DNA of 64,000 nt from Bacteroidales bacterium (GCA_017546125.1 JAFYXO010000013.1:33647-97646); one strand, 5' to 3'; positions 23,700 to 46,914 are shown, counted from the stretch's first letter. A program made the numbers and translations. Notes: a model not told the origin generated them from the letters alone.

Positions 23700-25283
23700 A
23701 TGAGAAGATTGAATTTGTTGTTCATTGCAGCTGTGCTGCTATTCGCCTCTTGCGGTGAGCAGGAGCACAATATATATATTTACGCCACCACCGATGTGCA
23801 CGGAACATATATCGGGGAGAACTCCCTTTCTAATGTCAATACTTATGTGAATCAGAAGAGGGGTGAATATGGTGAGAAATCGGTATTCCTTATCGATAAT
23901 GGTGACCATCTCCAGGGGACAAATGAGGCCTATTATTTCAATTTTAAGGACAAATCCGGTGGCAAGCACCTTTTCAGCAGGGTGATGGAATATATGCGCT
24001 ACGATGCTATAGTGCTCGGAAATCACGATATAGAGGCGGGACACCCTGTCTATGACAAAATAGATGAGGAGATGAATATCCCATATCTGGCAGCAAATGC
24101 TATCGAAGTGGAGACCGGCAAACCATACTTCCAGGAGTATGCAATCATTAAAAAAGGTGGGGTAAAAGTGGCTGTAATCGGTTTTGAAAACCCAAATATT
24201 GCAAGCTGGCTGGCCCCTGCGCTATGGGAAGGGATCAAATTTGTACCCACTTACCCTATGGCAGATTCTCTGGTGGCTGCAGTGAGGGCTAAGGAGAACC
24301 CTGATGTGGTGGTGATTTCGGTGCATGGTGGTATTGGCGAAGCGGATAATCACAGGATCGAGAACCCTGCCCTGTATCTTGCTTCAAATGTGAAAGGTGT
24401 GGATCTTGTGATAGCGGGTCATGACCACAGAAGATTTGCAGAGAAGGTGTGGAATGGTGAGGACAGTGTATTGGTGATGGATGGCGGAAGCAGATCCAAA
24501 CTCCTCTCAGAGGTAAAGATATCGTTTAAAAAGAGGGGTGGAAAGGTGTATGACAAAGTGGTGGAAGGTGCCCTTGTAAATATGAAAGATGTCCCTCAGG
24601 ATACAATATTTGATGCAAAATTTGAAGCGGACAGGAAGATCGTTGAGGAGTTTGTAAATGTGAAAGTGGGTGAGATAACTGAGGATTTGAATTTCAGTGA
24701 GGCACTTGACGGAATGTGCGGATATATGGACTTCGTACATTTGGTACAGCTTGTTTCTACCGGAGCCGATGTGTCTATATCTGCCCCTTTGGCCACTTAT
24801 GGTGGTGTACCTAAAGGCGATGTGCTATACAAAAACCTGTTTGACTTGTATAGATACGAGAATCAGCTCTATGTAATCACAATGAGCGGCAAGGAGCTGA
24901 AAGACTATCTTGAGAACTCATTCGACATGTGGATCAATGGCAGGGGGCCCGCTTACAACTACGACTCTGCTACAGGACTTAACTATACAGTCAAAAAGTC
25001 GGCCAAGAAGGGTAACAGGGTTAAGATAACCACCATGGCAGACGGCAGACCATTTGATATGGAAGGCCAGTATAAAGTGGCTATGACATCGTATCGTGCT
25101 AGCGGTGCCGGCGATCTTTTGAAAAATGCAGGTATCGATCCATCAGAGATAGAGGGGAGGACAATCAACAGACTACCAGAGATTAGGGAGCTCATATATG
25201 AATATCTGCTGCAAGAGAAAGTGGTGGTTCCAAGTGAGCTTTCCAAAAATCCTAAATTGGGTACTTGGAATTTTGTGAAATAA
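23700..25283 (+). CDS. secreted bifunctional metallophosphatase/5'-nucleotidase (UshA-like) lipoprotein
   Basis: Lipobox LLFASC. Metallophosphoesterase motifs TTDVHG, GDHLQG and GNHD. C-terminal 5'-nucleotidase substrate-binding domain. Confidence 0.85.
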   Translation: MRRLNLLFIAAVLLFASCGEQEHNIYIYATTDVHGTYIGENSLSNVNTYVNQKRGEYGEKSVFLIDNGDHLQGTNEAYYFNFKDKSGGKHLFSRVMEYMRYDAIVLGNHDIEAGHPVYDKIDEEMNIPYLAANAIEVETGKPYFQEYAIIKKGGVKVAVIGFENPNIASWLAPALWEGIKFVPTYPMADSLVAAVRAKENPDVVVISVHGGIGEADNHRIENPALYLASNVKGVDLVIAGHDHRRFAEKVWNGEDSVLVMDGGSRSKLLSEVKISFKKRGGKVYDKVVEGALVNMKDVPQDTIFDAKFEADRKIVEEFVNVKVGEITEDLNFSEALDGMCGYMDFVHLVQLVSTGADVSISAPLATYGGVPKGDVLYKNLFDLYRYENQLYVITMSGKELKDYLENSFDMWINGRGPAYNYDSATGLNYTVKKSAKKGNRVKITTMADGRPFDMEGQYKVAMTSYRASGAGDLLKNAGIDPSEIEGRTINRLPEIRELIYEYLLQEKVVVPSELSKNPKLGTWNFVK

Positions 25284-25294
25284 AATCTCTTTCC

Positions 25295-25302
25295 TATCTT
25301 TG
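25295..25302 (+). promoter_or_regulatory. candidate -7 box (TAtcTTTG) for the coiled-coil/zapA operon
   Basis: TAnnTTTG lies 19 nt upstream of the ATG at 25321. It overlaps the track's TTG start at 25300, which argues against that start. Confidence 0.45.
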
Positions 25303-25320
25303 TGTATTAAGACGAAAGAA

Positions 25321-25614
25321 ATGGATAAAAGCAGAGAAATATTGCTGAATGATTTGACTAAGAAGATAGAGCTTCTTATCTCTAAGTATGAGCAAGTTCG
25401 TGCTGAGAAAAATGAACTTTCGTTGAAGCTTGCACAGTGCAAGGAAGAATTGGAAATTAGTAATAACAAGATAAAAGATTTAGAACAAAAGATAGATAAC
25501 TTACAATTGATTGAAGCATTCAAAGCATCTAAAGGTGATGTCAAGGAGGCTAAACTGAACATCAGTAAGCTTGTGAGGGAGATAGACAAGTGTATTGCAC
25601 TTTTGAACGACTAG
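25321..25614 (+). CDS. small coiled-coil protein (ZapB-like by position and composition)
   Basis: 97 aa with heptad-rich sequence (LELISKYEQVRAEKNELSLKLAQCKEELE). Sits immediately upstream of zapA. Confidence 0.6.
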   Translation: MDKSREILLNDLTKKIELLISKYEQVRAEKNELSLKLAQCKEELEISNNKIKDLEQKIDNLQLIEAFKASKGDVKEAKLNISKLVREIDKCIALLND

Positions 25615-25615
25615 T

Positions 25616-25915
25616 ATGGACGAGAACAGACATAGGATAACCATCAATATAGCCGGTAAGGATCGTCACTTCAGCAATATTGCACCTGAAGAGGAGGAGT
25701 TTATGCGTATGGCGGCTAAGATGATTACCAACAAGATGGATGATTACAAGAAGAAGTATGCGGGGTTGTCGGATCAGGATGCATTAAGCGTTACCTCATT
25801 GATATTTGTCACCCAATTGATTAAGGAGAGGAGGAACAATAGTGTAGGGGACTTTGAGAATAGAATAGCGGAACTTAATAATACACTCGACGAATATATT
25901 AAGACAAATCTCTAG
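25616..25915 (+). CDS. zapA: cell division protein ZapA
   Basis: 99 aa. ITINIAGKDRHF...EEEEFMRMAAKMITNKMDDY is the typical ZapA N-terminal fold, followed by a coiled-coil tail. Confidence 0.8.
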   Translation: MDENRHRITINIAGKDRHFSNIAPEEEEFMRMAAKMITNKMDDYKKKYAGLSDQDALSVTSLIFVTQLIKERRNNSVGDFENRIAELNNTLDEYIKTNL

Positions 25916-26104
25916 CCGTTAGATCGCTCTTTGCGAAAATCAACAGAATTAACATAACCGAGCCAACTCGACGGATGAAGACAGGCCTAGGTGACTCCTT
26001 CGGAGGATTACGTATTTACGTGACGTTGGAAGTCTGAGTCCAAAATCGGAGCTCAAATCTTATTATATAAGGTTTTTCGATGAACAGCATCTGACGGCTT
26101 TTTT
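25915..26104 (+). ncRNA. ssrS: candidate 6S RNA
   Basis: ~25-bp interrupted closing helix (25915-25941 with 26071-26098; the first 10 bp GCCGTTAGAT/ATCTGACGGC include one G-U). Large asymmetric internal loop (25942-25957 vs 26050-26070). Distal helices CCGA/UCGG and GGAUGAAGAC/GUCUGAGUCC. CUCC-UUCG-GAGG tetraloop hairpin at 25995-26006. Ends in a T6 run. Located right after zapA, as ssrS is in E. coli. Confidence 0.6.
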
Positions 26105-26173
26105 CAATATAAATTATCTCTCTTTTGTTGTAAAGTAGCGTTTGAAACTAAACTAAACACTATATATACAACA

Positions 26174-27718
26174 ATGAATACCAGCATTATTATAATTATT
26201 ACAGGTATCTCCTCTGCTTTGGCAGCTTTGGGATGTTATACCCTTGTCAGAAATGTTATTTTAAAGAAGAAGGGCAGTCAAATCATCCGCGACGCTGAAA
26301 TTCAGGGGGAGAATATCAAGAAAGAGAAGATTTTCCAGGCAAAGGAGAAATTCCTTCAGCTCAAATCTGAGCATGAGAAAGAGGTAAACGAAAAGAATTT
26401 CCAGATCCAGCAATTTGAGAACAAACTCAAACAGCGTGAAATGCAGATCAATCAGCAAGCATCTGAAGTTCAAAAGAAACAGAAAGAGGCTGACACTATC
26501 AGAGAGAATCTTAAAGCCCAACTGGATATCGTAAACAAGAAGTCTGATGAGTATGAGAAGCTACGTGTACAAGCTATTGAGAAGATAGAGAGCATCGCAG
26601 GGATGTCTGCAGCTGAGGCCAAAGAGCAGCTTGTAGAGAGTATGAAAGCTGAGGCACGTACACAAGCCATGTCATACATCAACGATGTGATGGATGAGGC
26701 CCGCCTTACTGCATCAAAAGAGGCAAAAAGGATTGTTATCAATACCATTCAGCGTATTGCACCTGAGACAGCCATTGAGAATGCTGTAACAGTATTCCAT
26801 ATCGACAGCGATGAGGTGAAAGGAAGAATCATCGGACGTGAAGGTCGTAATATCCGTGCACTTGAGGCAGCAACAGGTGTTGAGATTGTAGTGGATGACA
26901 CCCCTGAAGCAATCCTCCTTTCAGCATTTGACCCAGTACGCAGGGAGGTAGCCCGTCTTGCACTTCACCAGCTTGTAACTGACGGCCGTATCCACCCTGC
27001 ACGTATCGAAGAGGTGGTGGCTAAAGTACAGAAACAGCTTGAGGATGAGATTATGGAGACAGGTAAACGTACTTGTATCGACCTTGGTATCCACGGCTTG
27101 CATGTAGAGCTTATCCGTCTTATCGGACGTATGAAATATCGTTCATCATACGGTCAGAACTTGTTGCAACACTCTCGCGAGGTGGCAAATATCTGTGCTA
27201 CTATGGCATCAGAGCTTGGCCTTAACCCTAAAGTGGCCAAACGTGCCGGTCTTCTACACGATATCGGTAAAGTATCTGAAGAGGATTCAGAACTTCCACA
27301 TGCTATCCTGGGTATGAAACTAGCTGAGAAATATAAAGAGAAACCAGAGATCTGCAACGCTATAGGTTCTCACCACGAAGAGGTAGAGATGACATCACTT
27401 ATTTCACCTATCGTATTGGTATCCGATGCTATCTCAGGTGCCCGTCCAGGTGCCCGTCGCGAGGTAATCGAGTCTTACATCAAGAGACTTAAAGATATGG
27501 AAGGCATCGCACTTTCTCACCCTGGTGTTACCAAAACATACGCTATACAGGCAGGTCGTGAGCTACGTGTTATCGTAGGTGCAGACCAAGTGTCAGATGC
27601 CGAATCTGAAGTATTGTCAAACGAGATCGCTAAGAAGATCCAGGATGAGATGGTTTATCCGGGTCAGGTGAAGATTACTGTGATTCGTGAGACTCGCTCC
27701 GTAGCTTTTGCAAAATAA
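26174..27718 (+). CDS. rny: ribonuclease Y
   Basis: N-terminal TM helix, long coiled-coil, KH domain ([15 protein letters not shown]) and HD domain (LLHDIGK). Confidence 0.95.
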
Positions 27719-31475: not shown

Positions 31476-32084
31476 ATGAAACTCTACAGATTTGTACTTG
31501 CTATAATTATAACAGTATCATTTGCTACAGCCACTTATGCCCAGGAAGATAAAGTGATAAAAGGCTTTTCAGGAGGCATGATGCTTCACACAGGATACCA
31601 GTTCGGAGGTGATAATCCATATAATCTCTCTATCAGTAGCCCCACTTTCGGTATTGGAGGGTGTGCAAAAATCCACTTTACAAACCATTTCAGAACAGGA
31701 TTTGAAGGGTATTTTTCTACAGCGCCTATCCATAAAGGGGTCCAGAGCGGAAGTCATAACAAACTTTTCTGGACAGGTGTTCTGGCTGACTGGTTCTGGC
31801 AAGTAGGTAAGTTGATACCATATGTAGGTATTACAGCTGGTGGTGGGATGGAGACATCCTTCTATATGTTTGAGGGGGACAAATACGACTGGGAACTTGA
31901 GCCCAAAGCTGTACTGCACAAGCAGCCGATTTTCGTAGTTGATCCGTATGTGGGGATAGAGTATGCTGTAGGAAAGGCCCTCAGACTTACATTGAAGGCT
32001 GACTGGCTGTTGGCTTTCCATTCAAGTGGTCTCAACTGGCCTATGGGGCCGAGAGTGTACTTCGGCTTTATATTTGCACATTGA
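31476..32084 (+). CDS. outer-membrane beta-barrel protein (porin-family-like)
   Basis: Signal peptide ending ATATYAQ. Alternating aromatic/Gly pattern. C-terminal ...VYFGFIFAH. Confidence 0.7.
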   Translation: MKLYRFVLAIIITVSFATATYAQEDKVIKGFSGGMMLHTGYQFGGDNPYNLSISSPTFGIGGCAKIHFTNHFRTGFEGYFSTAPIHKGVQSGSHNKLFWTGVLADWFWQVGKLIPYVGITAGGGMETSFYMFEGDKYDWELEPKAVLHKQPIFVVDPYVGIEYAVGKALRLTLKADWLLAFHSSGLNWPMGPRVYFGFIFAH

Positions 32085-32120
32085 TAATATCCCTGCGAAT
32101 TTCTCTACACGAAACAGAAC

Positions 32121-32166
32121 CCCATTTACTACAGTAAGTTATTATAGTAAATGGGTTATTGTTTTG
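32121..32166 (+). terminator. intrinsic (probably bidirectional) terminator at the left edge of the low-GC island
   Basis: 11-bp stem CCCATTTACTA / TAGTAAATGGG (32121-32131 and 32145-32155), followed by TTATTGTTTTG. Confidence 0.7.
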
Positions 32167-32183
32167 TTAAATTTGTGTAAATA

Positions 32184-32549
32184 TTAATTTTGAAAATAAC
32201 CTATAGCATATATATTATCACTATCTATAATAATAGTGTACTTATCATGTATCTTAGGAACATTTATATATGTTACAGAGTATGTTTCAGAATTAACGAA
32301 TTCTTCTTTTACTACAGTACCATTGCTGTTTAATATATATATGTTAATATTATCTAGTCCAGCATGGTGGAATTCAATATAATCATCTGATGAATGGAAA
32401 TATGCAGCACATAAGATTATATCTCTAGGTCTTGAAGTTGTTGATTTATCTTCTTTATCTAATATAATTTCTTTTATAGTAATAGCATAGTTTGCTATAG
32501 GTTGTAGAAATAATAAGATCGTAAAAATGAGTAAGGATTTAGTTTTCAT
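32184..32549 (-). CDS. small secreted beta-sandwich protein, DUF3244-like
   Basis: Signal peptide. ~100-aa body with alternating pattern (INIYILNSNGTVVKEE...YTIIIDSDNIYAIGYF) resembling DUF3244 proteins. Confidence 0.65.
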   Translation of the reverse strand: MKTKSLLIFTILLFLQPIANYAITIKEIILDKEDKSTTSRPRDIILCAAYFHSSDDYIEFHHAGLDNINIYILNSNGTVVKEEFVNSETYSVTYINVPKIHDKYTIIIDSDNIYAIGYFQN

Positions 32550-32560
32550 AGTCTAATAAT

Positions 32561-34192
32561 TTATTTAATTATGATGTTTGGGTATAGCTCTGTAAATAAG
32601 TTTTTTAACCATATGTCTAGATTTGTGTCGCTTTGATTAAGGTTCATCTTCTTTCGTAATAGTGAATTGATGTTGTAAACAGTCTTCCTTTTAATTAGAT
32701 ATTTAATGTCTTCTGGATATAAACCAATGATATACAAGCAACAAAAACCGATTTCAGAAGTAGTTAATCCATTGTTTTTAAGTCTTACTACAAACTCCGG
32801 ATATAGAATTGTATATACCAATGCCACATTGTCTATTATGTAGTTTTTATTTTTTTCAATCATTTCTATCTGACTGGCTATTTTTGATATAGAGTCAGGT
32901 TTAGGTGACTCCATAAATGTAGTAAATGAAATTAGTCTATTTTTAAGGTTCTCATTGTCTTTTACTAAGGAGAGAATGTGGTAATACTTCTGCTCAACAA
33001 TCTTCAAGATTCTAAACTCATTATTTATCGCCCAAAGTTTACGCTTATTAACGAACCATTTGATAGATGTATATAGTGAAATTATTGATAATAATGATAT
33101 AAATAAAATACTATACATCTTGATATTTCTCTTTTTTCTCTCCGATAACAGAAATTGATATTCTTTCTGTAGTAATGCAATATTAGATTTATATATGAAT
33201 AAATCTTGCTTGCCGTTTATTTCCGAATAAATTTTACGAGAACGAGAGGCGCCTTTGTAGTCTTCTAAATGTTCTTGTATCTTGGCAAGATTTGAATAAT
33301 ATGAAGCATCGTTAGAGATGTCATTATATTTTGAATACAAATTAATATAATACAATGCATCATCATATTGTTGATTCTTGAGTTTGGCTATAGCTATAGT
33401 CTTCCAATTTATCAGATTATAGTGTGGATAATTATTTATATAACTATTCGTAAATATATCAACTGTACCTGCATGAGCTTTTGTGTATATATAATAGTTT
33501 AATTTTAGATTATGATAGAAGTGAATTTGTTCTATGCTCATATTGTTTATATATTGATCTAATGTGTCTATAGCTATAGAAAGGTTATTGTATCTTTCCA
33601 TCATATTGTTCATTTTACCAATATTGAGGTAACAATATATATAATATGTAGTGTCCCTATCCAGATAAGCGTAGTGTGCTGCTCTTGAAAAAGAATGAAA
33701 GGATTCTTCATGTCTCCATATTTTATGATACATTGCACCTTGAAGACCAGATATCCTTTTTAAAATATTATTGTCAATTTGCAATGTGTCTAATGAAAGA
33801 GCTTTAACTGCACACAACATAGCTTCCTCATAATCTTCTTTATTTTCATAAATCCTTCCAAGATAGTAATATGTATAGGCTTTATCATTCTCAGTCCCAT
33901 GATTAAGGTAGTACTCAACAGCGGGTTTTATAATGCTGTCATGTGTAAGATCAATGTAATTTTTATCAAGGGCTATAGAGTAGAGAAGGGCATATCTCGC
34001 TTTATCTTTTTTAGTGTGTAATGAACTAATGTCTATTTTCTTTAGTTCATTAAGAGCACTATCAGGATTAGTATTAATGTATGACCCTATATTCTCCATG
34101 TTACGAAATTTGGTATGTGTCATCTTACATGAGCAAATAACAAGGGTGGATATGAGAACTAATAGTACTTTCTTTTTCATGTTCAAACTCAT
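32561..34192 (-). CDS. membrane-anchored regulator: lipoprotein signal + TPR-like helical domain + single TM + C-terminal HTH-like domain
   Basis: Lipobox LVICSC. TPR-like repeats (e.g. AYTYYYLGRIYENKEDYEEAMLCAVKAL). TM MYSILFISLLSIISLYTSIKWF flanked by basic residues. C-terminal LTTSEIGFCCLYIIGLYPEDIKYLI... resembles a LuxR/GerE-type HTH. Confidence 0.6.
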   Translation of the reverse strand: MSLNMKKKVLLVLISTLVICSCKMTHTKFRNMENIGSYINTNPDSALNELKKIDISSLHTKKDKARYALLYSIALDKNYIDLTHDSIIKPAVEYYLNHGTENDKAYTYYYLGRIYENKEDYEEAMLCAVKALSLDTLQIDNNILKRISGLQGAMYHKIWRHEESFHSFSRAAHYAYLDRDTTYYIYCYLNIGKMNNMMERYNNLSIAIDTLDQYINNMSIEQIHFYHNLKLNYYIYTKAHAGTVDIFTNSYINNYPHYNLINWKTIAIAKLKNQQYDDALYYINLYSKYNDISNDASYYSNLAKIQEHLEDYKGASRSRKIYSEINGKQDLFIYKSNIALLQKEYQFLLSERKKRNIKMYSILFISLLSIISLYTSIKWFVNKRKLWAINNEFRILKIVEQKYYHILSLVKDNENLKNRLISFTTFMESPKPDSISKIASQIEMIEKNKNYIIDNVALVYTILYPEFVVRLKNNGLTTSEIGFCCLYIIGLYPEDIKYLIKRKTVYNINSLLRKKMNLNQSDTNLDIWLKNLFTELYPNIIIK

Positions 34193-34361
34193 AATTTACT
34201 ACCAAATTTATATAATATTTATTTTTCAAGATTGTATATAAGAGCGTTTTTCACAATATTGAAATAAAATAAACGTAAGTTGCTTATTATTATAGAGATA
34301 GATGTTTAAAAAATGAGATATTTTTTTTCTGACTGAAATGTTTATCAAGTAATTTTGATTA

Positions 34362-34382
34362 AGATTAATTAAGAATTAATCT
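34362..34382. promoter_or_regulatory. 21-bp perfect palindrome AGATTAATT-AAG-AATTAATCT in the divergent island promoter region
   Basis: 9-bp arms with a 3-nt spacer. Ends 32 nt upstream of the ATG at 34415. Confidence 0.45.
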
Positions 34383-34414
34383 AAGTTTTCTGTTTTATCT
34401 TAAATATTAATTGT

Positions 34415-35905
34415 ATGAAAAAAGCTCTATTTTTGATGTTGATCTCTATCGTATCTTGTACTGTTTTAGAGAATGGTACATTTTTAAGTGATGGTATGCA
34501 GAAAGAAATCATAGATGAACCATATTCTTTTGAGACCATTACTGCTACTAATGTATGGAAGCAACATAATACTTTTGAAGAGATGCAAAAAGCATGTCAA
34601 ATTCCACATGAATACCTAGAGAATATGACAACAAGAAGTTTGGTAGAAACATGTATTAAGTATCCTCTCTTTGGTAATTATATGGCGTATAATGATCAGT
34701 TTGATGGAGTAAAAGCTGTCATGGCTGGTTTTAATGGTTTTGAAGAACTTAAATCTAGAGATGATGCTGCGGAAGAGCTATTAAAATATTATGCATCTAT
34801 GGATGTTGAGATTATTGGTGCTCAAACAAAATCTGATGCATATTCTGATTTAGTAAAAGGTAATAGTGTAATGCATGTTGATTTTATGGAACTTGTGTTA
34901 ATGTCAGGAGTATTTCCATCTGTTATTGTTGATAATTCTGATGAATTAAGGAATATAGCAGAGAGTAAATTGCTTTCAAAAATAAATAATAATACCTCAT
35001 TTAGTGATGAAAGTATCTTAAAAACAGGAGTAATTATAGATGTTTTAGATAAAGTCTCAGAAGTTGTTTGTAAAAGTTCAGACTATGTTATAGATACACT
35101 ATATTGGTTTAATGAGTTTAAAAAAAATTATTACAATGGAAATGTCGCACCAAGTGGTGTTTACACAAAAGGAGGTCAGTATATAGAAATTATAAATAGG
35201 GGAGAATTAACAGATGCTGATCTTTTAACAAGGCAGCAATATTTGGTCCGAATATATCCAAATGCTATTATACTATCTGAAGCATCAGATATGTATAATG
35301 GGCATGGGTATGCTTGGCATATGTCTGATGGTGGTTCAGAGTGTTGGATTAATTCTGTAACTATGAGTGAGCCTGATATTATGAATGGAAATATTAGGAA
35401 GTATTGGACAAATGATTATTATTGGCAAACCTATGCGCCGGAGTTTGCCCAAAAAATATTATATGTGAGTGCTTCTGCAAGTGATTGCCATACAGCAGTG
35501 AGATCAAGTGTTGCGGGAAAATATGAATCTAAATGGGGTGGTTTGCCATTAGTAAGACACGAGCCTAACTATTGTCCTTATATCGGAAGTAAACTTTATT
35601 TTACACATAATGTTACTACAGGTTTATTAGTGTGTAGTTCTGGAAATGGTGAGACTAGTGTAGGGGAAAGTAGTGATTACTATCCTGCGCAGGAACCAAG
35701 TACATCTATTGCATATAGAGAGTGGGAGATATTAACAGCAAAGGGAACTAATGCTGTTGAGGATGGTAAAGCGAGTATATCTACTAATGGAAATGTAGCA
35801 ACTATTTCATTTAATTTTCCAGGACTATACCAGATTTTCTATCGATCTTATAACAGCTTAAATTATTTGGTAGGAGAGTATTTCTTTGAGCCTATAGTAG
35901 AATAA
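34415..35905 (+). CDS. lipoprotein of unknown function (496 aa)
   Basis: Lipobox LISIVSC. Helical N-terminal half, a Cys/His/Trp-rich middle region (…DCHTAVRSSVAGKYESKWGGLPLVRHEPNYCPY…) and a C-terminal beta-rich ~90 aa. No family recognised. Confidence 0.75.
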   Translation: MKKALFLMLISIVSCTVLENGTFLSDGMQKEIIDEPYSFETITATNVWKQHNTFEEMQKACQIPHEYLENMTTRSLVETCIKYPLFGNYMAYNDQFDGVKAVMAGFNGFEELKSRDDAAEELLKYYASMDVEIIGAQTKSDAYSDLVKGNSVMHVDFMELVLMSGVFPSVIVDNSDELRNIAESKLLSKINNNTSFSDESILKTGVIIDVLDKVSEVVCKSSDYVIDTLYWFNEFKKNYYNGNVAPSGVYTKGGQYIEIINRGELTDADLLTRQQYLVRIYPNAIILSEASDMYNGHGYAWHMSDGGSECWINSVTMSEPDIMNGNIRKYWTNDYYWQTYAPEFAQKILYVSASASDCHTAVRSSVAGKYESKWGGLPLVRHEPNYCPYIGSKLYFTHNVTTGLLVCSSGNGETSVGESSDYYPAQEPSTSIAYREWEILTAKGTNAVEDGKASISTNGNVATISFNFPGLYQIFYRSYNSLNYLVGEYFFEPIVE

Positions 35906-35930
35906 AATTTCTAGGGAATCAGATAATGTG

Positions 35931-38279
35931 ATGGATATTAGAAGTTTAATAGTATTGATATTGTCTTTTTTATTATCTCTTGTGTCGCTTGCTCAAGAGA
36001 GAGATACCGTGTACAATATCAAGGAAGCTGTGATTTTTAGTGATAGGGGGATGTTGGATATCAAGAGCACTCAATCCAGTTCTACTAAGATCTCAAGGAA
36101 GGAGATTTTTCAGGTGCCTGCTGTTATGGGTGAGGTGGATGTAATTAAGGTATTGCATAGAATTCCAGGCATCTTGTCCACAGGAGACGGACGAGCAGGA
36201 GTGTATGTCAGAGGTGGCGATTATGATCAGAATCAGATAAGGATGGATGGGGCGATATTGTATAATGCAGAACATCTTAAGGGGTTTCTTTCAGCAATCA
36301 ACCCAGATATGGTGGATCAGATGGTGGCTTATAAAGGTGCTTTTCCTTCTCAATATGGAGGGCAACTGTCCAGCATTATAGACATAAAGATGAGAGAAGG
36401 AGATTATCAAGATTTTCATGGTTCATTAAATATGGGTCTGATGTCATCCAAAATACAAGCAGAGGGGCCAATTTGGAAAATGAGAACATCATTCAATATA
36501 GGCGCTCGAGTCTCATATATAAATTTTATAGTGCTCCCTGTTCTGACTAAAATAGCAGACAATTCCAATGCAACCTCTTCATATGTTGATCTGAAGTATT
36601 ATGACATTACAGCCAAATTATCACACAAATTCAGTGACAAGCACAAACTGTCCGGGACCTTTTATATAGGTAAAGATATTCAAGGTGAGTCACCGACACC
36701 ATCAATAAGAGAAGTGGCAGATGGAGGTCTGTATTCATACTATAAAATTGATGAGTTTTCCGGCAGTAAATGGGGGAATATATCGGGCAGTTTGAATTGG
36801 TTATATGCATTAGATGCACAACTAAGTTTTGGGTCCAGTGTGGTGTATAGTGGTTATAACTATAATTTAGACAGCAGGCTTAATACAATTTACAAAGAAG
36901 AGAGTTTCAGTCAAAGAGTCTTATATGAAGCAGAAACTCGTTTAAATCAAAAATCAGACATAGAGAATATGTCTGTAGAATTTTGCTTAAACCACAAAAC
37001 TGCCAATAATGATTTGATGGTAGGGTTTAAAGGTGATTATAGTGTTTTCTGTCCAATCGTGAATTCATATAAAAGGGTATATCAGGAGTTTTATAATAAT
37101 ATTTCAGAGAGCGGTAGACATGTTTCTGAAAGCGTGCTGGATACTGTTTCTGGAAACATACAAAATATTAAATCACTTTCGATGTATGTGCAAGATGATT
37201 TAAGGGTAGCTAATTGGTTAGGTGTAAGTTGTGGTATAAGATATACATTATACTCGGTCCCTAATAAGATGTATCACTCATTTGAGCCTCGTGGCGCTAT
37301 CAGATTCTTGGTTACACCCAATGCATCATTCAAATTGTCATATGCCAGTATGTCGCAAGGAATACACCAGCTTGTGAGCAGTTCACTTTACTCACCATCT
37401 GATATATGGGTACCTATAACTGAGAATATTCCACTTATGCGTGGTAATATATTCAGCGTTTCTTACGAACAGGAGTTTAATAAGGGGTTCAGACTTTCAT
37501 TGGAGGGGTATTACAAACAAATGGCAAATCTTTTAGAATACAAGGAAGGTGCTTCAGCACTATCTGGTCAGGATTGGGAGAAGAGAGTTGTTTTAGGGAA
37601 CGGGTGGGCATATGGATTGGAATTCTTATTGGAGAGGAGTGCTGGTAATACTACAGGATGGATTAATTATACATGGAGTAAGTCTCTTCGTCTTTTTGAT
37701 GGTGTAAATAATGGGGAAAAATATTATAGTCCAAATGATAGAAGGCATAACTTTGGGATACTGTTAAATCATAAATTTGATCATAGGTGGAATGTGTCTT
37801 TATCTTGGACATATCAGACCGGGCGTTTTAGTACCATTCCGGATCAAGTGTATTATTCCGGAAGTAGGGTTTCAGAAATTCTAATTACCCATGACTCTAA
37901 TGAGCATAGAGCATTTCATTATGATTCGTACAGTTTTATTAGATATGATGAGAGAGTTGGGAAGTATGTCGTTGATCATGTTGGACAGTTTGAAGATAAA
38001 TCTGATGATAGTTTTTTCAGAAGATATCTCAGAGTGGATTCTTATACAGAAAAAAATGGATATAAGTTTCCGGATGTGCATAGGTTGGATATTAGTGTGA
38101 ATTACAATATAGAGCATAAATTTGGGAAAAGCGTTTTGAATTTGTCAATATATAATCTGTATAATAGAATGAACATAACATCTGTTTATATGGGTTTTGA
38201 TGAAAATAATAATATAGCTATGAAAGGTTTGTGTCTGCTGCCATTTATGCCTTCGATTAGTTATACGTTTAAATTTTAA
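35931..38279 (+). CDS. TonB-dependent receptor (plug + 22-strand barrel), SusC-unlike
   Basis: Signal peptide. Plug motifs (VIKVLHRIPGI, GVYVRGGDYDQNQIRMDG, FPSQYGGQLSSIIDI). C-terminal ...SISYTFKF ends in aromatic F. No N-terminal CarboxypepD_reg-like extension. Confidence 0.85.
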   Translation: MDIRSLIVLILSFLLSLVSLAQERDTVYNIKEAVIFSDRGMLDIKSTQSSSTKISRKEIFQVPAVMGEVDVIKVLHRIPGILSTGDGRAGVYVRGGDYDQNQIRMDGAILYNAEHLKGFLSAINPDMVDQMVAYKGAFPSQYGGQLSSIIDIKMREGDYQDFHGSLNMGLMSSKIQAEGPIWKMRTSFNIGARVSYINFIVLPVLTKIADNSNATSSYVDLKYYDITAKLSHKFSDKHKLSGTFYIGKDIQGESPTPSIREVADGGLYSYYKIDEFSGSKWGNISGSLNWLYALDAQLSFGSSVVYSGYNYNLDSRLNTIYKEESFSQRVLYEAETRLNQKSDIENMSVEFCLNHKTANNDLMVGFKGDYSVFCPIVNSYKRVYQEFYNNISESGRHVSESVLDTVSGNIQNIKSLSMYVQDDLRVANWLGVSCGIRYTLYSVPNKMYHSFEPRGAIRFLVTPNASFKLSYASMSQGIHQLVSSSLYSPSDIWVPITENIPLMRGNIFSVSYEQEFNKGFRLSLEGYYKQMANLLEYKEGASALSGQDWEKRVVLGNGWAYGLEFLLERSAGNTTGWINYTWSKSLRLFDGVNNGEKYYSPNDRRHNFGILLNHKFDHRWNVSLSWTYQTGRFSTIPDQVYYSGSRVSEILITHDSNEHRAFHYDSYSFIRYDERVGKYVVDHVGQFEDKSDDSFFRRYLRVDSYTEKNGYKFPDVHRLDISVNYNIEHKFGKSVLNLSIYNLYNRMNITSVYMGFDENNNIAMKGLCLLPFMPSISYTFKF

Positions 38280-38285
38280 TGAACA

Positions 38286-39347
38286 ATGAAAAAGATAGGT
38301 ATAATACTATTGTTGCTTATAGGTGCTGTCTCTTCTTGTGAAGTTATATTGGAATTTCCTGAAGAGAGAGAAAAGTCTGTGTTGGTGTTGAATGCTATTG
38401 TAGATACGGACTCTACATTTTCAGCTTTTGTTAGTAGGTCGTTACCAAGCGACTCCGTCTATCCTGGAAATTTATTTTACGGGTATGATGATATTCTGTA
38501 TGGTGATATGAGTTTGTCAGGGTTATATGAGGATTTTAATATGAAAAAGCATGCGATACAGGATGTTAAGGTTTTATTTCAAGTGAATAATGGTTCTAGT
38601 GAGATTATGTATTATGATTCATTATTGATGAAATATAGATGTGATTATGTACCCAGAGAAGGTGATAAGGTAAATATATGGTGTGAGAATCAGAGTTATG
38701 AAATAATCTCAGCCGAGACTTTAGTCCCTCAAAAACAGAAAATAGAAGTGTTAAATGTTGAAAAAATATATAGTGAGAGTCCAGATTGTGAATGCACCGA
38801 TACAATTATCCGTATTGATTTAAATATAACTGATCCTGGCAACGAAAAGAATTATTATCGTTTGAAAATTAGAAGTGCTTCAGGATTCTATGAAGACCTG
38901 GTTTCTGACAATAAAACATCTAACGGGTACCAGGTTATATACAAGAATCGATATAGAATAAACGACTACTATACATCAACAGATCCGTTGTTTTATGATG
39001 AATATTTATACAAGGGAGATGGGGTGTGGCCGGCACATTTTTCTACAATTTTTGATGATAGGCTGATAGATGGGAAAAGTTATTCTTTTACAGTCGAAAT
39101 TAGAGAAGTATTGGGAAACTATATGGATTCAGCCGGTAATACATATCAACACAACAATCCCTACCTTTACATAGAACTGGTATCCATAACCGAAGATATG
39201 TACAAATATATGAAATCAATGATGAAATATAGGATATCAGAAGGTGACCCATATGCGGAGCTAAGTAAAGTGTATACCAATATAGAAGGTGGCTTCGGCA
39301 TATTGGGAGCCAGCTCAAGCACTGACATATATTTCCCTTTATTTTAA
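38286..39347 (+). CDS. DUF4249-like lipoprotein
   Basis: Lipobox GAVSSC followed by ...SVLVLNAIVDTDSTFSAFVSRS. Typical size and position immediately downstream of a TonB-dependent receptor. Confidence 0.65.
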   Translation: MKKIGIILLLLIGAVSSCEVILEFPEEREKSVLVLNAIVDTDSTFSAFVSRSLPSDSVYPGNLFYGYDDILYGDMSLSGLYEDFNMKKHAIQDVKVLFQVNNGSSEIMYYDSLLMKYRCDYVPREGDKVNIWCENQSYEIISAETLVPQKQKIEVLNVEKIYSESPDCECTDTIIRIDLNITDPGNEKNYYRLKIRSASGFYEDLVSDNKTSNGYQVIYKNRYRINDYYTSTDPLFYDEYLYKGDGVWPAHFSTIFDDRLIDGKSYSFTVEIREVLGNYMDSAGNTYQHNNPYLYIELVSITEDMYKYMKSMMKYRISEGDPYAELSKVYTNIEGGFGILGASSSTDIYFPLF

Positions 39348-39366
39348 TTGTGTAACACCTATAATT

Positions 39367-40206
39367 TTAGCCCAGGAAATTTGTCTTAGCAGCTACCCTG
39401 TAGCCCTCAGCATATAGTGCAGAGAGTTTGGTAGTGTCGGTCTCCATACGGTCTACCTCTACAGGCTTTTCAGGAGATATCACTATTACTTTACCTTCTG
39501 ACTCAAGCTTGTCTATGAGGTCAAGTGTCTTGTTGTATTTGGAATTTCTTTCAGCTATAGCTCTTTGTAGATGAGGGTATTTGCGGTAGAACAGTTTGGT
39601 GATGGGGTGTGAAGTCTCCTTTTTTCTGTATCCTCTCTGTCGGGTAAGGACCACTACTGCCTTTTCGTATCCCTGATTAAGAGCATATTCTATGGGGATA
39701 GAGTCAGCTATCCCGCCATCCAGCATAGGTATTCCGTCTACATGGGTGATTTTGCATACATAGGGGAGACTGCTTGATGCACGGACAATATCCATAACCC
39801 TATCTGAGGATTTTCTCTCCTCCAGATATTCCGCCTGACCTGTGAGGCAGTTGGTGGTAACCATTACATACCTGTCGGGGTTTGAAAAATAGGTGTCGTA
39901 GTCGTATGGGATGATTTTAGTGGGGAAATCTTCAAAAAGGAGTTTGAAATCCATAATGCACCCCTGTGAGAAGAGGTACTTCAGACCTACATAGTGGTGT
40001 TTCTCCATCAGGTCTATGTTGCTCGCCTTGGCACGGCCACGCTGTCCCGACATATATGATAGGCCATTGCAGGCACCTGCACTTACACCTACTGTGAGGG
40101 GGAATGTAATACCATGGTCCATAAAATAGTCCAGAACTCCGCAAGTAAATACCCCACGAAGTCCGCCCCCCTCAAGAATAAGTGCTGAATGCCTCCCAAT
40201 AGTCAT
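39367..40206 (-). CDS. patatin-like phospholipase
   Basis: Oxyanion GGGLRG, nucleophile GVSAGA, and later DGG (MLDGGIADS). Confidence 0.85.
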   Translation of the reverse strand: MTIGRHSALILEGGGLRGVFTCGVLDYFMDHGITFPLTVGVSAGACNGLSYMSGQRGRAKASNIDLMEKHHYVGLKYLFSQGCIMDFKLLFEDFPTKIIPYDYDTYFSNPDRYVMVTTNCLTGQAEYLEERKSSDRVMDIVRASSSLPYVCKITHVDGIPMLDGGIADSIPIEYALNQGYEKAVVVLTRQRGYRKKETSHPITKLFYRKYPHLQRAIAERNSKYNKTLDLIDKLESEGKVIVISPEKPVEVDRMETDTTKLSALYAEGYRVAAKTNFLG

Positions 40207-43427: not shown

Positions 43428-45485
43428 CTATCTCTCTTTTTCTATCCTGACTCTTGCATCCACTGCCACCACCTGTCTGCTGTTGCCCAATAGGGGGTTG
43501 AGGTCCATTTCGAAGATCTCAGGTGCCGCCTCGCATAGGGCAGATACCCTTCTTATAGCCTCTGCAAAGAGCGGAATGTTTACACCCTCTTGACCTCTGG
43601 TCCCCTCAAGCATCTTGTAGCTGCGGAGCCCTTTGATCATCTCATTTGCCTCTGTGTGGGACACAGGTGAAAGTGAATAGTTGATATCTTTAAGTGTCTC
43701 AACAAATATACCACCTAAACCGCAAAGTACCAAATGGCCGAAAGAACCTTCACGTTTGGCACCGATGAAGATCTGGGTACCGGAAAGCATCGGCTGCATG
43801 AGGATAGCGGTGGTTTGGGGTATCTGCATCATCCTTCTGAACTGGTTCAATAGGGTGGTGTCATCTTTGATATCCAAAGCTACTCCGCCAACATCCGATT
43901 TGTGTACAGGCCCTATGACCTTCATGACCAGAGGGTATCCTATTGCGTGAGCACCTTCCAGTACCTCTTTTTCGCTTGTGGCCACCACCTCTTTTGCCCT
44001 CTCTATCCCTGCCGCATCGAGGAGAATCTGCACTTTTTCCGGTGCCAGATATCCGTTCTGGGCCTCATCGATGATGGTGCGGATCTTCTTTTTGTCCACA
44101 GGTGGAAGGGTGAAGTCTCCGATAGCCTGCGGCTGGTTGACGATCTTGACTATTGCACTGCCGAGTGCCACCTCGTCTGGGAAACTGATCCCCCCGTCCT
44201 GCTGGAACTTCATTATCTCATCCGCAGAATTTACGATGGATGGAAGTACGGGATATATTGGTTTCTTTGAGTTTCTGATCTTATCTGCAAGCAGGTCGTA
44301 CACGTCGTAGGTGGTCTTGAGACCCGGATTTCCGAAGATGACAGTCATACCGTCCACGTCAAAATCCTTCTCGCATGCATCAAGGATGTGTCCCAATTGC
44401 TCGGCGGTGCCTGTGGCAAGGAAGTCGATAGGGTTTGCTACAGATGATCCAGGGTAGAGCTTTGAGAGGAGCTCATCCGCTTTCTCACCTTTGAACGGAG
44501 GAATCTCGATTCCGTGGCTCGAAAGGATATCTGTCTGCATGACTGCAGGACCTCCTGCATGGGTAATAATTGCAAATTTATTCCCCTTAGGTGCGGGGTA
44601 CATAAGTGCAGAGGCTACATTCACAAGTTCTCCTCTGCTATAGCAACGGATGATTCCCGCTTTGCGGAACAATGCATCCACTGCTTTGTCGGGTGAGGCC
44701 ATAGCACCTGTATGAGAGGATGCTGCGCGGCTCCCCGCTTCGCTGTAACCCGATTTGATTGCTGCAATCTTTGCACCCTTCTTAATTAGTGAAGATGCGT
44801 GTTTGTAGAGCTTCCAAGGGTCGCTTATGTTTTCGATGTAGAGCATGATGACAGGGGAGCTTTTGCCCGCCTGATAGCTCTCATCCATATATTCAAGTGC
44901 CTCTTCAACCCCAATTTGGGCGCAATTGCCCACGGAGAAGACTTGGCTGAAGTTCAATCCAAGCTGCATGGCTGCCTCCAATATGAAGACAATGGTGGCA
45001 CCGGAACCTGAAATGAGGGCTGCTCCATCTGGGGTGAGCTTGGGAATAGGGTGGGTGAAGACACCTGCGTAGTCCGGAGTCATCACTCCGATGCAGTTAG
45101 GGCCGATCAGGCTAGTGCCGCACTCATTGCACACTTGTGCTATTTTGTTCTCTATCTCTGCACCCTCGGCGCTGTCTTCGTGGAAACCGGCAGAGAGGAT
45201 GATTATCGCCTTGCACGACTTCTTGTAGCAGAGGGTAGTGACAGCATCGAGGCACAATTTGGCCGGGATGGCCAATATGGCGCACTCCACTGCAGGGATA
45301 TCTTCTATATTTCTGTATGATCTGACCCCTTGGGCAGAATCTGCCTTGGGGTTTACAACGAACAAATCACCCGAATAGTGGGTGTCGAGCAGGTTCTTCA
45401 GTGTGTTGCCTCCAGGCTTCTGAGTGTCGTCAGAGCCGCCTACTACTACAATGCTTTTGGGTGATATGAGTTCTCTGTTTATCAT
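43428..45485 (-). CDS. ADP-forming acetyl/acyl-CoA synthetase (fused alpha-beta, NDP-forming family)
   Basis: MINRELISPKSIVVVGGSDDTQKPGG CoA-binding N-terminus, a succinyl-CoA-synthetase-like ligase domain and a C-terminal ATP-grasp. The track ORF (to 46064) is over-extended into the divergent gene. ATG at 45485 or 45503. Confidence 0.85.
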   Translation of the reverse strand: MINRELISPKSIVVVGGSDDTQKPGGNTLKNLLDTHYSGDLFVVNPKADSAQGVRSYRNIEDIPAVECAILAIPAKLCLDAVTTLCYKKSCKAIIILSAGFHEDSAEGAEIENKIAQVCNECGTSLIGPNCIGVMTPDYAGVFTHPIPKLTPDGAALISGSGATIVFILEAAMQLGLNFSQVFSVGNCAQIGVEEALEYMDESYQAGKSSPVIMLYIENISDPWKLYKHASSLIKKGAKIAAIKSGYSEAGSRAASSHTGAMASPDKAVDALFRKAGIIRCYSRGELVNVASALMYPAPKGNKFAIITHAGGPAVMQTDILSSHGIEIPPFKGEKADELLSKLYPGSSVANPIDFLATGTAEQLGHILDACEKDFDVDGMTVIFGNPGLKTTYDVYDLLADKIRNSKKPIYPVLPSIVNSADEIMKFQQDGGISFPDEVALGSAIVKIVNQPQAIGDFTLPPVDKKKIRTIIDEAQNGYLAPEKVQILLDAAGIERAKEVVATSEKEVLEGAHAIGYPLVMKVIGPVHKSDVGGVALDIKDDTTLLNQFRRMMQIPQTTAILMQPMLSGTQIFIGAKREGSFGHLVLCGLGGIFVETLKDINYSLSPVSHTEANEMIKGLRSYKMLEGTRGQEGVNIPLFAEAIRRVSALCEAAPEIFEMDLNPLLGNSRQVVAVDARVRIEKER

Positions 45486-45633
45486 TTTTTTACTTTTAAT
45501 CATGCAAATATAATAAAAAGTCGCTATTTTAGTAGTGATTGTTAAAAAAAATAATAAAAAAGTTTGATTTGATTTCAAATTAAAAATATGGGCCATATAT
45601 TTTTTATTCTTTGTGATATTTTTTAACTTTGCT

Positions 45634-45641
45634 TTGATAAA
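45634..45641 (+). promoter_or_regulatory. candidate -7 box (TAacTTTG) for the mtaD operon
   Basis: TAnnTTTG lies 14 nt upstream of the ATG at 45655. It is downstream of the track's start at 45613, which argues against that start. Confidence 0.4.
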
Positions 45642-45654
45642 TTGTAAGAGAATT

Positions 45655-46914
45655 ATGGGAACATTATTGATAAAACAAGTTACCCTGAACGGGGAGAAAA
45701 AAGATATCTTAATCGAAGGGAATAAGATAGGCAAAATAGCAGATGAGATTAATGTATCGGCGGATGAGGTTATTTCGGGAGAGAATATGACAGCCATCCC
45801 CGGTCTGTACAATATGCATACACACAGTGCCATGACACTTATGAGGGGGTGTCTGGAAGATGCTCCACTATTTGAGTGGCTTGACGAGGTGTGGAGACTT
45901 GAAAAACATATCGATCCTGAGGCAATATACTGGGGTACCAAACTCGCATGTATCGAGATGATCAAATGTGGTGTCACCTGCTTCCTGGATCTGTACTGGT
46001 TTATAGATACAGCTGTAAAAGCAGTGGAGGAGACAGGTATGAGGGCAAACCTCTCATATACCATTCTGGGTGGTGGAGATGCCGAGAAAGAGGCACGACA
46101 GGTGCGTGAGTGTCAGGAGATCTATGAGAAATCCAAATCATGGAGCGACAGGGTGCAGTTCTCAGTGGGTATCCATGCAGGTTATACTGTGGCTGAAGAG
46201 ACTATGCTCTGGGCCACAAACTTTGCAGTAGACCACGATCTGCTTATCCATACCCACTTGTCTGAGACAGAGAAAGAGGTGAAGGATTCGATAGAACTTT
46301 ATGGGGTGTCACCTGTGAAGAGATTCAAGAGATTGGGCATGTTGAGTGACAGAGTTATCGCTGCACACGGTGTATGGCTTGATGAAGAGGATATCGAGAT
46401 CCTCGGCAACAGGAGAGTTACCATTACCCACAATATCAACTCAAACCTGAAACTCTCTTCGGGCTATATGTTCAAATACAAGGAGCTTAAGGCTGCCGGA
46501 GCCAATGTGGTATTCGGTACAGACGGCACAGCATCTTCTAACAATCTTGATGTTCTGGAGTCGATGAAGACATCTGCTCTTATGCAGAAAGCCTGGAGAA
46601 AGGATCCCGGGGCAATGCCTCTTCAGGAGATTATGGATATGGCAACCAAAGATTCGGCAAAAGCACTCAGAATCAATTCCGGTGAGATCGTGGAGGGCAA
46701 GCTTGCAGATATCGTATTGGTGAATACCAAGTCTGCTGCATTCACCCCTAATTACAACTTCCTCGCAAATCTTATCTATTCGGCAAACAGCTCTTGTGTG
46801 GATACTGTGATCTGTGATGGTAAAGTGATAATGAGAAACAGGGTTATCCCTGGAGAGGAAGAGGTATTGGAAAATGCAGCCAGAATGGCTGCCAAATTGG
46901 CTAAAAACTTATAA
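45655..46914 (+). CDS. mtaD: amidohydrolase, 5'-methylthioadenosine/S-adenosylhomocysteine deaminase-like
   Basis: HxH metal site (NMHTHSAM), HLSET and GTDG motifs of the chlorohydrolase/deaminase branch. Context with PNP and mtnA. Confidence 0.75.

Follow-up and report, generated by a model that had tools for sequence, protein, structure and literature searches.

A low-G+C accessory locus of a gut Bacteroidales bacterium combining a candidate DUF7689–TonB-dependent transporter–DUF4249 uptake operon with a divergent candidate regulatory pair

What does a compact group of five AT-rich genes do in the genome of a gut bacterium, how did it come to lie there, and do its genes belong together? These questions are raised by a 7.28-kb island (positions 32085-39366) in a 64,000-nucleotide stretch of DNA from a Bacteroidales bacterium (GCA_017546125.1, JAFYXO010000013.1:33647-97646), which was analyzed in full and is referred to below as the window. 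The island occupies the spacer between two convergent genes, one encoding a 202-aa protein and the other a patatin, and consists of a minus-strand pair (121 and 543 aa) that is divergent from a plus-strand trio (496, 783, and 353 aa). A preliminary description had listed a small secreted protein, a tetratricopeptide repeat (TPR) regulator, a lipoprotein, a TonB-dependent transporter (TBDT), and a DUF4249 lipoprotein as its products, which was confirmed by the open reading frames (ORFs) and by Pfam. In our assessment, it is reasonably probable that the island is an acquired accessory locus in which an uptake operon is combined with a divergent regulatory pair.

Composition, occurrence, and boundaries of the island

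The content of guanine plus cytosine (G+C) is 32.5% in the island versus 45.0% in the remaining window, and no other 7.3-kb stretch of the window has a lower value. In a sliding-window analysis, G+C passed from 0.42-0.50 outside to 0.25-0.38 within approximately 32000-39300, in agreement with the abrupt low-G+C block described earlier. All five genes share this property, their G+C at third codon positions (GC3) being 0.15-0.33 compared with 0.38-0.60 in all 44 other ORFs of the window. The richness in N, K, I, and Y that had been ascribed to the encoded proteins was recovered for the regulator and the small protein, in which the N/K/I/Y/F fraction reaches 0.43 versus ~0.21-0.40 in other window ORFs.

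The distribution of the island among relatives was examined by comparison with other loci, which are designated here by L numbers. A scan with the flanking patatin protein, using one genome per species, placed the host among uncultured gut Bacteroidales, with the best patatin matches in yak-cecum and other gut metagenome-assembled genomes named 'Candidatus Coprenecus'. The island is missing from three sister species ('Candidatus Coprenecus' and related gut genomes; L003, L004, and L005), in which the proteins encoded on either side of the site share 85-99% identity with their window counterparts. The 202-aa and patatin genes are adjacent in L003 and L004, with spacers of ~48 and 0 nt, respectively, and L005 carries at the same site an unrelated 1.37-kb insert (L005:10835-12209; 41.6% G+C) encoding a small membrane protein. 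Another organism (L096) carries, elsewhere on the chromosome and beside Peptidase_M19, DUF2807, and sigma-70 genes, a cassette that is 72-73% identical at the DNA level. It contains the regulator, small protein, TBDT, and DUF4249 genes without the lipoprotein gene, and its G+C (32.6%) is 13 points lower than that of its flank (46.1%). The island is an accessory insertion-type polymorphism, and the accessory status suggested in the preliminary description is borne out by the empty sites and by the related cassette in another context. Horizontal gain is the most economical reading of this pattern, and the locus was probably acquired.

A third state of the site was provided by a second strain of the same species (L177), in which the flanks are 94.5-96.5% identical and the island lies at the same site. 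In this strain, the lipoprotein gene has been lost, apart from a 26-codon stub, through an out-of-frame deletion of 1,398 bp (window 34479-35876) that is bounded by the imperfect 7-nt repeats AGAGAAT and AGAGAGT; the other four genes are intact. Comparison of the two strains gave dN/dS (ratio of nonsynonymous to synonymous divergence) values of 0.17 for the regulator, 0.14 for the TBDT, and 0.08 for the DUF4249 gene, indicating purifying selection on all three, and a decaying remnant was therefore rejected for these genes. Synonymous divergence (dS) between the strains was 0.04-0.09 in the island and up to 0.39 in several flanking genes.

The left junction spacer (32085..32183) contains an inverted repeat (32109-32167) with 29-nt arms at 32109-32137 and 32139-32167 and a T-rich tail, whose predicted folding energy is -23 kcal/mol on the plus strand (z -4.4) and -20.7 kcal/mol on the minus strand. 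The strong hairpin reported at this edge is therefore real, and it could serve as a bidirectional terminator for the 202-aa gene (plus strand) and the small-protein gene (minus strand); it escaped the terminator scan, which does not allow loops of this length. At the right junction (39348..39366), the stop codon of the DUF4249 gene extends to 39347 and the end of the convergent patatin gene lies at 39367; the tail-to-tail gap between them is the 19 nt that had been noted. The spacers of the empty sites have no sequence in common with the island ends, and direct repeats were not found on the two sides of the island.

The site itself looks like a rearrangement hot spot. In L005, a duplicated fragment of the patatin 3' end adjoins the 202-aa gene. 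The patatin gene of the window (39367-40206) is 83.6% identical in DNA and 91% in protein to that of L003, and the neighboring genes are 88-89% identical in DNA and 93-98% in protein. Elsewhere in the window, other short low-G+C patches (0.36-0.41) are present at 25000-26500 and at 45250-46000, the latter within an 878-aa ORF (43428-46064, minus strand).

The transporter, its putative lid, and the DUF7689 lipoprotein

The plus-strand trio has the appearance of an uptake operon. Its second gene (35928..38279) encodes a 783-aa non-SusC TBDT with Pfam matches to Plug (8.7e-10) and OMP_b-brl_4 (3.5e-11). The Plug domain begins at aa 45 and is not preceded by a CarboxypepD_reg or STN extension; a CarboxypepD_reg-like N-terminal domain is present in the relatives encoded at L084, L109, and L110. 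An NCBIfam scan of the TBDT at E <= 0.01 returned no family, and therefore no SusC/RagA-type match. The TBDT gene starts 22 nt past the stop codon of the lipoprotein gene and is followed after 6 nt, on the same strand, by the gene for a 353-aa DUF4249 lipoprotein (38286..39347, plus strand; Pfam DUF4249, E 2e-26, aa 24-346), in which a VSSC lipobox and then an acidic stretch (EVILEFPEE) can be read from the sequence.

Such gene pairs have a precedent. In the study by Price, Deutschbauer & Arkin 2023 (bioRxiv 10.1101/2023.03.17.533168; PMC11003636), the DUF4249 protein BT2173 of B. thetaiotaomicron was proposed as an extracellular lid of the non-SusC TBDT BT2172, on the basis of cofitness, AlphaFold-Multimer contacts, and an adjacency kept across dozens of genera, and TBDTs with alternate lids tend toward small substrates. 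By analogy, the TBDT and DUF4249 protein of the island fit this known alternate-lid pattern: in both systems a non-SusC TBDT gene is followed on the same strand by a DUF4249 lipoprotein gene, and the pairing recurs across many genera. The likeness is one of family and gene order rather than of direct sequence comparison, and the DUF4249 protein of the island would accordingly be a putative lid, exposed at the cell surface and in contact with the barrel. Unlike BT2172/BT2173, the island adds a preceding DUF7689 lipoprotein and a dedicated TPR transmembrane regulator.

The additional lipoprotein proved to be a nearly constant companion of this transporter type. Eighty metagenome loci were annotated with hidden Markov models (HMMs) built for this analysis, and in 32 of the 39 loci with enough downstream sequence one or more DUF7689 genes lie directly upstream of a gene pair for a TBDT and a DUF4249 protein, the order of the pair being variable. 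The triad order is also seen in L084 and in L086-L090. Among the seven exceptions are distant loci, several from termite-gut-like samples, with tandem arrays of the family. In addition, the helical domain and the part comprising DUF7689 and an immunoglobulin (Ig)-like domain, which are fused in the window, are two adjacent genes in many loci. The regulator is present at 4/35 loci, and the five-gene synteny put forward in the preliminary description did not hold as a conserved unit; it is the triad that is kept. The claim of an undescribed system had to be reduced as well. The TBDT and DUF4249 protein correspond to a published lid pair and the regulatory pair to the BT3442/BT3441 architecture, and novelty had been overstated, as known, if poorly studied, counterparts exist for two of the three building blocks. 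What is new is a near-constant third partner, DUF7689, of DUF4249-lidded transporters, with apparent active and inactive forms, together with a natural allelic series at one site. No mention of DUF7689 was found in our literature search, and none of the DUF7689-TBDT-DUF4249 association in the accessible portions of the alternate-lid literature.

The 496-aa lipoprotein (34415..35905, plus strand) matches Pfam DUF7689 (PF24738) with 23.2 bits, against a threshold of 22.6. It comprises an N-terminal helical domain (aa ~30-240), a mixed alpha/beta DUF7689 core (aa ~245-400), and a C-terminal Ig-like beta-sandwich. The AlphaFold2 models had pLDDT (predicted local distance difference test) values of 81 for the whole protein and 84 for the core alone. 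A Foldseek search with the whole chain matched only the C-terminal Ig domain, all hits being marginal (best E 1.2e-3), and a sequence and profile search of the PDB with the 496-aa protein gave nothing usable. More could be learned from the family. In an exhaustive profile HMM search, 5,304 cluster representatives were retrieved at E <= 1e-3, of which 893 reached E <= 1e-30; many of the matches were full-length. Among 85 sampled relatives, 69 matched DUF7689 (best E 2e-11), and 12 carried a sorting tail of the type IX secretion system (T9SS) instead of a lipobox. As the relatives are lipoproteins or T9SS-tailed proteins, members of the family are presumably exported to the cell surface, where they would be either exposed or set free. 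A word-indexed search had returned 21 matches, and the idea of a very small lipoprotein family was rejected in view of the HMM result; such searches badly underestimate the family size of divergent, AT-biased proteins.

The consensus of the family reads YNCHxYAW ... DHSA ... SKWG ... RH, with N295, W301, H359, S372, K373, W374, and H382 invariant. In the modeled geometry, the consensus Cys lies at the N-terminus of a helix and the invariant His359 and His382 on successive strands, which resembles the arrangement in papain-like hydrolases (NlpC/P60, CHAP, C39, transglutaminase-like), where a Cys at a helix N-terminus is likewise followed by His on beta-strands. The motif and the predicted geometry suggest a papain-like Cys/His signature of the DUF7689 core, and the family members are probably surface thiol hydrolases. 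The Cys of YNCHxYAW is kept in 136/166 relatives; in the window lipoprotein and its closest homologue, the motif is YNGHGYAW, with Gly296 in place of Cys. The catalytic nucleophile of papain-like hydrolases is therefore missing from the window copy, and this copy is probably a non-catalytic binder, because it has Gly where the nucleophile is expected.

Several further observations concern the surroundings and the fate of these modules. Distant lipoprotein relatives in L148-L173, L175, and L176, several with termite-gut-like names, form tandem arrays of 2-4 paralogous genes with no TBDT or DUF4249 gene nearby, and some of these members have T9SS tails or PKD domains, representing a second context of the family. 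At L084 (1785-3202), L097, L099, L100, and L129, the DUF7689 gene is intact and the TBDT and DUF4249 genes that follow it are fragmented into short ORFs (e.g., 131, 196, and 143 aa), a pattern suggestive of recurrent transporter decay in certain lineages. Cell-wall genes were found next to some modules: a glucosaminidase/LysM gene upstream and mraW-ftsL-PBP (penicillin-binding protein) genes downstream in L088 (5175-16822), and D-Ala-D-Ala ligase and Mur ligase genes in L109 (3996-6820). Similarly, the BT3433-BT3442 cluster is known from the literature to follow ftsZ/ftsA/ftsQ/murC. This neighborhood may be a coincidence, an insertion preference, or a hint of a peptidoglycan-derived substrate.

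The divergent pair and the region between the two units

The 543-aa regulator (32561..34192, minus strand; the true start is probably the MKKK codon at 34180) has matches to TPR_2, TPR_1, and TPR_8 and to NCBIfam BT3442_fam (51.3 bits, E 7.8e-14, aa 5-519). It is only a distant relative of that family (NF053779), since the equivalog cut-off is 940 bits. From the N-terminus onward, a lipobox (Cys22) precedes a TPR domain assigned to the periplasm, and a single membrane-spanning helix (~aa 360-382) leads to a linker on the cytoplasmic side; the conserved domain at the C-terminus resembles the helix-turn-helix (HTH) of LuxR. At least 730 homologues were found, and in the family alignment Cys22 is nearly invariant, one hydrophobic span is present, and TPR matches occur in 21/22 members. 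The conserved C-terminal motif is LTxxEIGFCCLY..GL...EI......YNISS.IRKKLG, and profile comparisons of this domain are suggestive of a LuxR-type HTH. In addition, 5/22 relatives weakly matched DUF6377, and DUF6377 TPR proteins are treated in the literature as membrane regulators of polysaccharide utilization loci (PULs).

The gene for the 121-aa secreted small protein (32184..32549, minus strand) lies beside the regulator gene. An N-terminal signal peptide is visible in its sequence, and the protein resembles Pfam DUF3244 (PF11589; E 5.9e-4, 20.2 bits against a cut-off of 25); 2/6 of its relatives match this family. A further homology search with the small-protein profile recovered 8 proteins, none with a Pfam assignment. 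At every inspected locus (L085, L086, L092, L095, L096, and L177), a homologue of ~120-129 aa follows the regulator. The same arrangement was described by Xu et al. 2010 (PMC2954219), who reported that the BT3442/BT3441 pair heads the MACPF-rich lipoprotein cluster BT3433-BT3442 and that BT3441 is homologous to 3d33, a structure of the DUF3244 family. Both pairs consist of a TPR multi-domain protein of ~550 aa and a small Ig-like protein (DUF3244, 3d33 family), and both adjoin clusters of surface lipoproteins and outer-membrane proteins. The difference lies in the neighbors, which in the island are a TBDT system rather than MACPF or lectin-like proteins, and in the distance between the two regulators.

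The genes around the regulator family vary, including TolB-like/DUF5128 propellers and TBDT/DUF4249 genes in several arrangements. Relative to the TBDT and DUF4249 genes, the pair is oriented divergently in four loci (the window, L096, L177, and L085) and co-directionally in L086/L087 and L094/L095. The two divergent units of the island recur together elsewhere. In view of the varied neighbors and of the 4/35 loci at which the regulator stands beside the triad, the five-gene layout is one combination of two modular units.

The two units are separated by a putative divergent promoter region (34193..34414), which was examined with motif scripts and by reading the sequence. It contains a Bacteroides-type -7 box, TAATTTTG, on the plus strand (34350-34357) and another, TAAATTTG, on the minus strand (34203-34210). 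A block with the order AAAATGAGA...GAAATG...TAATTTTG can be aligned with the corresponding stretches of L096 and L085, and these elements are consistent with promoter function. A perfect 9-bp palindrome, AGATTAATT-AAG-AATTAATCT (34362-34382), lies between the plus-strand -7 box and the start codon of the lipoprotein gene; it was rejected as a conserved operator, because L096 and L085 lack it at the corresponding position. In strain L177, the entire intergenic region is 100% identical, palindrome included. A scan for sigma-70-type promoters found 47 versus 43 expected from shuffles, which is not above background, and an Rfam search of the island returned nothing at E <= 1, so no riboswitch or other RNA offers a clue to the substrate.

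A candidate uptake and sensing system and its alternatives

Taken together, these features could be arranged into the following model. The DUF7689 lipoprotein would capture a compound at the cell surface; relatives that bear the Cys would cleave or process it, and the window copy, with its presumed loss of catalysis at Gly296, would bind the compound and hand it over to the lid and the barrel. The DUF4249 protein would act as the lid on the extracellular face of the barrel, by analogy with BT2172/BT2173, and TonB would power import. The regulator, lipid-anchored and with a single membrane span, would expose its TPR domain to the periplasm and its LuxR-like HTH to the cytoplasm, and would be co-transcribed with the small secreted DUF3244-like partner. 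In the periplasm, the TPR domain and this partner might detect the compound that has been imported, or one of its derivatives, whereupon the HTH would bind DNA and turn on transcription from the divergent promoter, in the manner of SusR or hybrid two-component systems at PULs; activation is the presumed direction of regulation. The substrate may be a small peptide- or amide-bearing compound, as is hinted at by the likeness of the partner protein to hydrolases and by the tendency of alternate-lid TBDTs toward small substrates. Compared with SusC/SusD PULs governed by SusR, hybrid two-component systems, or extracytoplasmic function sigma factors, the island likewise has one or more surface lipoproteins, a lidded TonB-dependent barrel, and a linked candidate envelope-sensing regulator; however, it has no SusD, SusC-type barrel, glycoside hydrolase, STN domain, or sigma/anti-sigma pair, and its lid and regulator belong to unrelated families. 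Pfam and NCBIfam gave no match to SusD, sigma/anti-sigma factors, hybrid two-component systems, glycoside hydrolases, integrases, or transposases among the five products. The island is hence neither a classical PUL nor an obvious mobile element, as had been stated, and its lack of canonical PUL parts and mobility genes holds for the five products.

Several results weigh against this model. For the lipoprotein, the papain-like assignment comes from a motif and the geometry of a model. A Foldseek search of the PDB with the core-only model gave nothing significant (best E 0.37, TM-scores <= 0.39), the insignificant list being mostly papain-like (PCAT1 C39, NlpC/P60, MepS/Spr, PcsB CHAP, USPs, and SpeB), and DUF7689 differs from the papain-like hydrolases in having no significant sequence or structure match to them, as well as in the Gly of the window copy. 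The lipoprotein gene is missing from both L177 and L096 and is dispensable in the sister strain. For the transporter, no substrate has been reported even for BT2172/BT2173. For the regulator, the C-terminal profile found the DNA-binding domains of VraR, NarL, and DosR as its best PDB matches, in the correct register, at the weak E-values of 0.06-0.9; Pfam GerE was not matched in the C-terminus; and a weak hhalign comparison with 11 LuxR-type HTH sequences gave a probability of 38.6% (E 3.2e-4) over 56 columns. The DUF3244 alignment of the small protein, which spans model positions 20-95 of 96, is below the cut-off, and sequence and profile searches of the PDB with this protein gave no match and did not recover 3d33. 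With the regulator beside the triad in 4/35 loci, it is position that links regulation to the uptake genes. With regard to the route of arrival, no tRNA was found in the window, no flanking direct repeats or target-site duplication at the island ends, and no integrase or transposase families among the called genes of the ~10-kb flanks, and an identifiable mobile element was accordingly rejected.

These points bear differently on the alternatives. It seems unlikely that the locus is ancestral and was lost in the lineage or lineages leading to the three sister species, with its low G+C reflecting the AT bias of weakly expressed surface-protein clusters. The missing integrase, tRNA, att repeats, and target-site duplication would fit such a history, as would a single loss in the clade of the three sister species, the instability of the site (the different insert and duplicated patatin 3' fragment in L005), and the internal deletion in L177. 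Moreover, a deficit of ~10 G+C points relative to the flanks is shared by the homologous modules of L086, L088, and L090, and low G+C may therefore be partly a property, perhaps an intrinsic one, of this class of genes. However, three separate sister species have no island and their spacers are clean, short, and mutually different, the closest cassette sits at an unrelated site and is again well below its flank in G+C, and dS against L177 is smaller within the island than in several of the genes around it; these points count against an ancestral origin. The distinctly unlikely view that the two units became neighbors through an accident of insertion, with the pair controlling other genes or itself and the uptake operon being constitutive or controlled elsewhere, draws on the rarity of the regulator upstream of the triad, on the unrelated neighbors (TolB-like/DUF5128 propellers and others) of its family, and on the human-gut triads L109 and L110, which have no adjacent regulator. 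Against it, the pair is linked to TBDT/DUF4249 genes in several independent arrangements, both divergent and co-directional, the pair and the operon move as one low-G+C block, and the intergenic region is unchanged between the strains.

The function of the module could also be surface antagonism or defence rather than nutrient uptake. DUF7689 would then be a papain-like toxin or a cell-wall hydrolase, secreted or displayed and directed against competitors, and the TBDT and DUF4249 proteins would serve in export, self-protection, or as a receptor. Pairs of the BT3442/BT3441 type stand at the head of the BSAP-like MACPF cluster BT3433-BT3442, in which pore-forming proteins abound, the T9SS-tailed relatives of DUF7689 are secreted, the weak Foldseek list holds NlpC/P60 and CHAP peptidoglycan hydrolases and a CdiA-CT toxin, and modules adjoin cell-wall genes in L088 and L109. 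We nevertheless consider such a role very unlikely: TBDTs are importers, the adjacency to a TBDT and a lid in 32/39 loci fits a hand-over of substrate, no immunity-like small gene is present among the island ORFs, the window copy is without the nucleophile, and the fold matches are not significant. A PADLOC scan of the island likewise gave no match, and on this ground a defence-system reading was rejected.

The candidate uptake locus with its divergent regulatory pair may also be an instance of something more general. It is possible, albeit doubtful, that DUF7689-TBDT-DUF4249 represents a widespread, undescribed three-component import machine of Bacteroidota, in which a papain-like thiol hydrolase displayed at the surface cuts a peptide- or amide-linked, possibly cell-wall-derived substrate and passes the product to a lidded barrel, and that the BT3442-type protein with its DUF3244-like partner represents a new class of lipid-anchored, single-span one-component regulators that read the periplasm through a TPR domain.

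The non-SusC TBDTs of gut Bacteroidota are largely orphans, and the DUF4249-lidded class has no assigned substrate. DUF7689, an unstudied surface-protein family of thousands of clusters, accompanies such transporters almost constantly as a third component, in predicted active (Cys) and inactive (Gly) forms, and its predicted enzyme activity is an assayable handle for finding the substrate of the transporter. In addition, the locus links an uncharacterized type of TPR transmembrane regulator to a candidate target promoter, and the empty, five-gene, and lipoprotein-deleted alleles that occur at one site in close relatives constitute a natural experiment.

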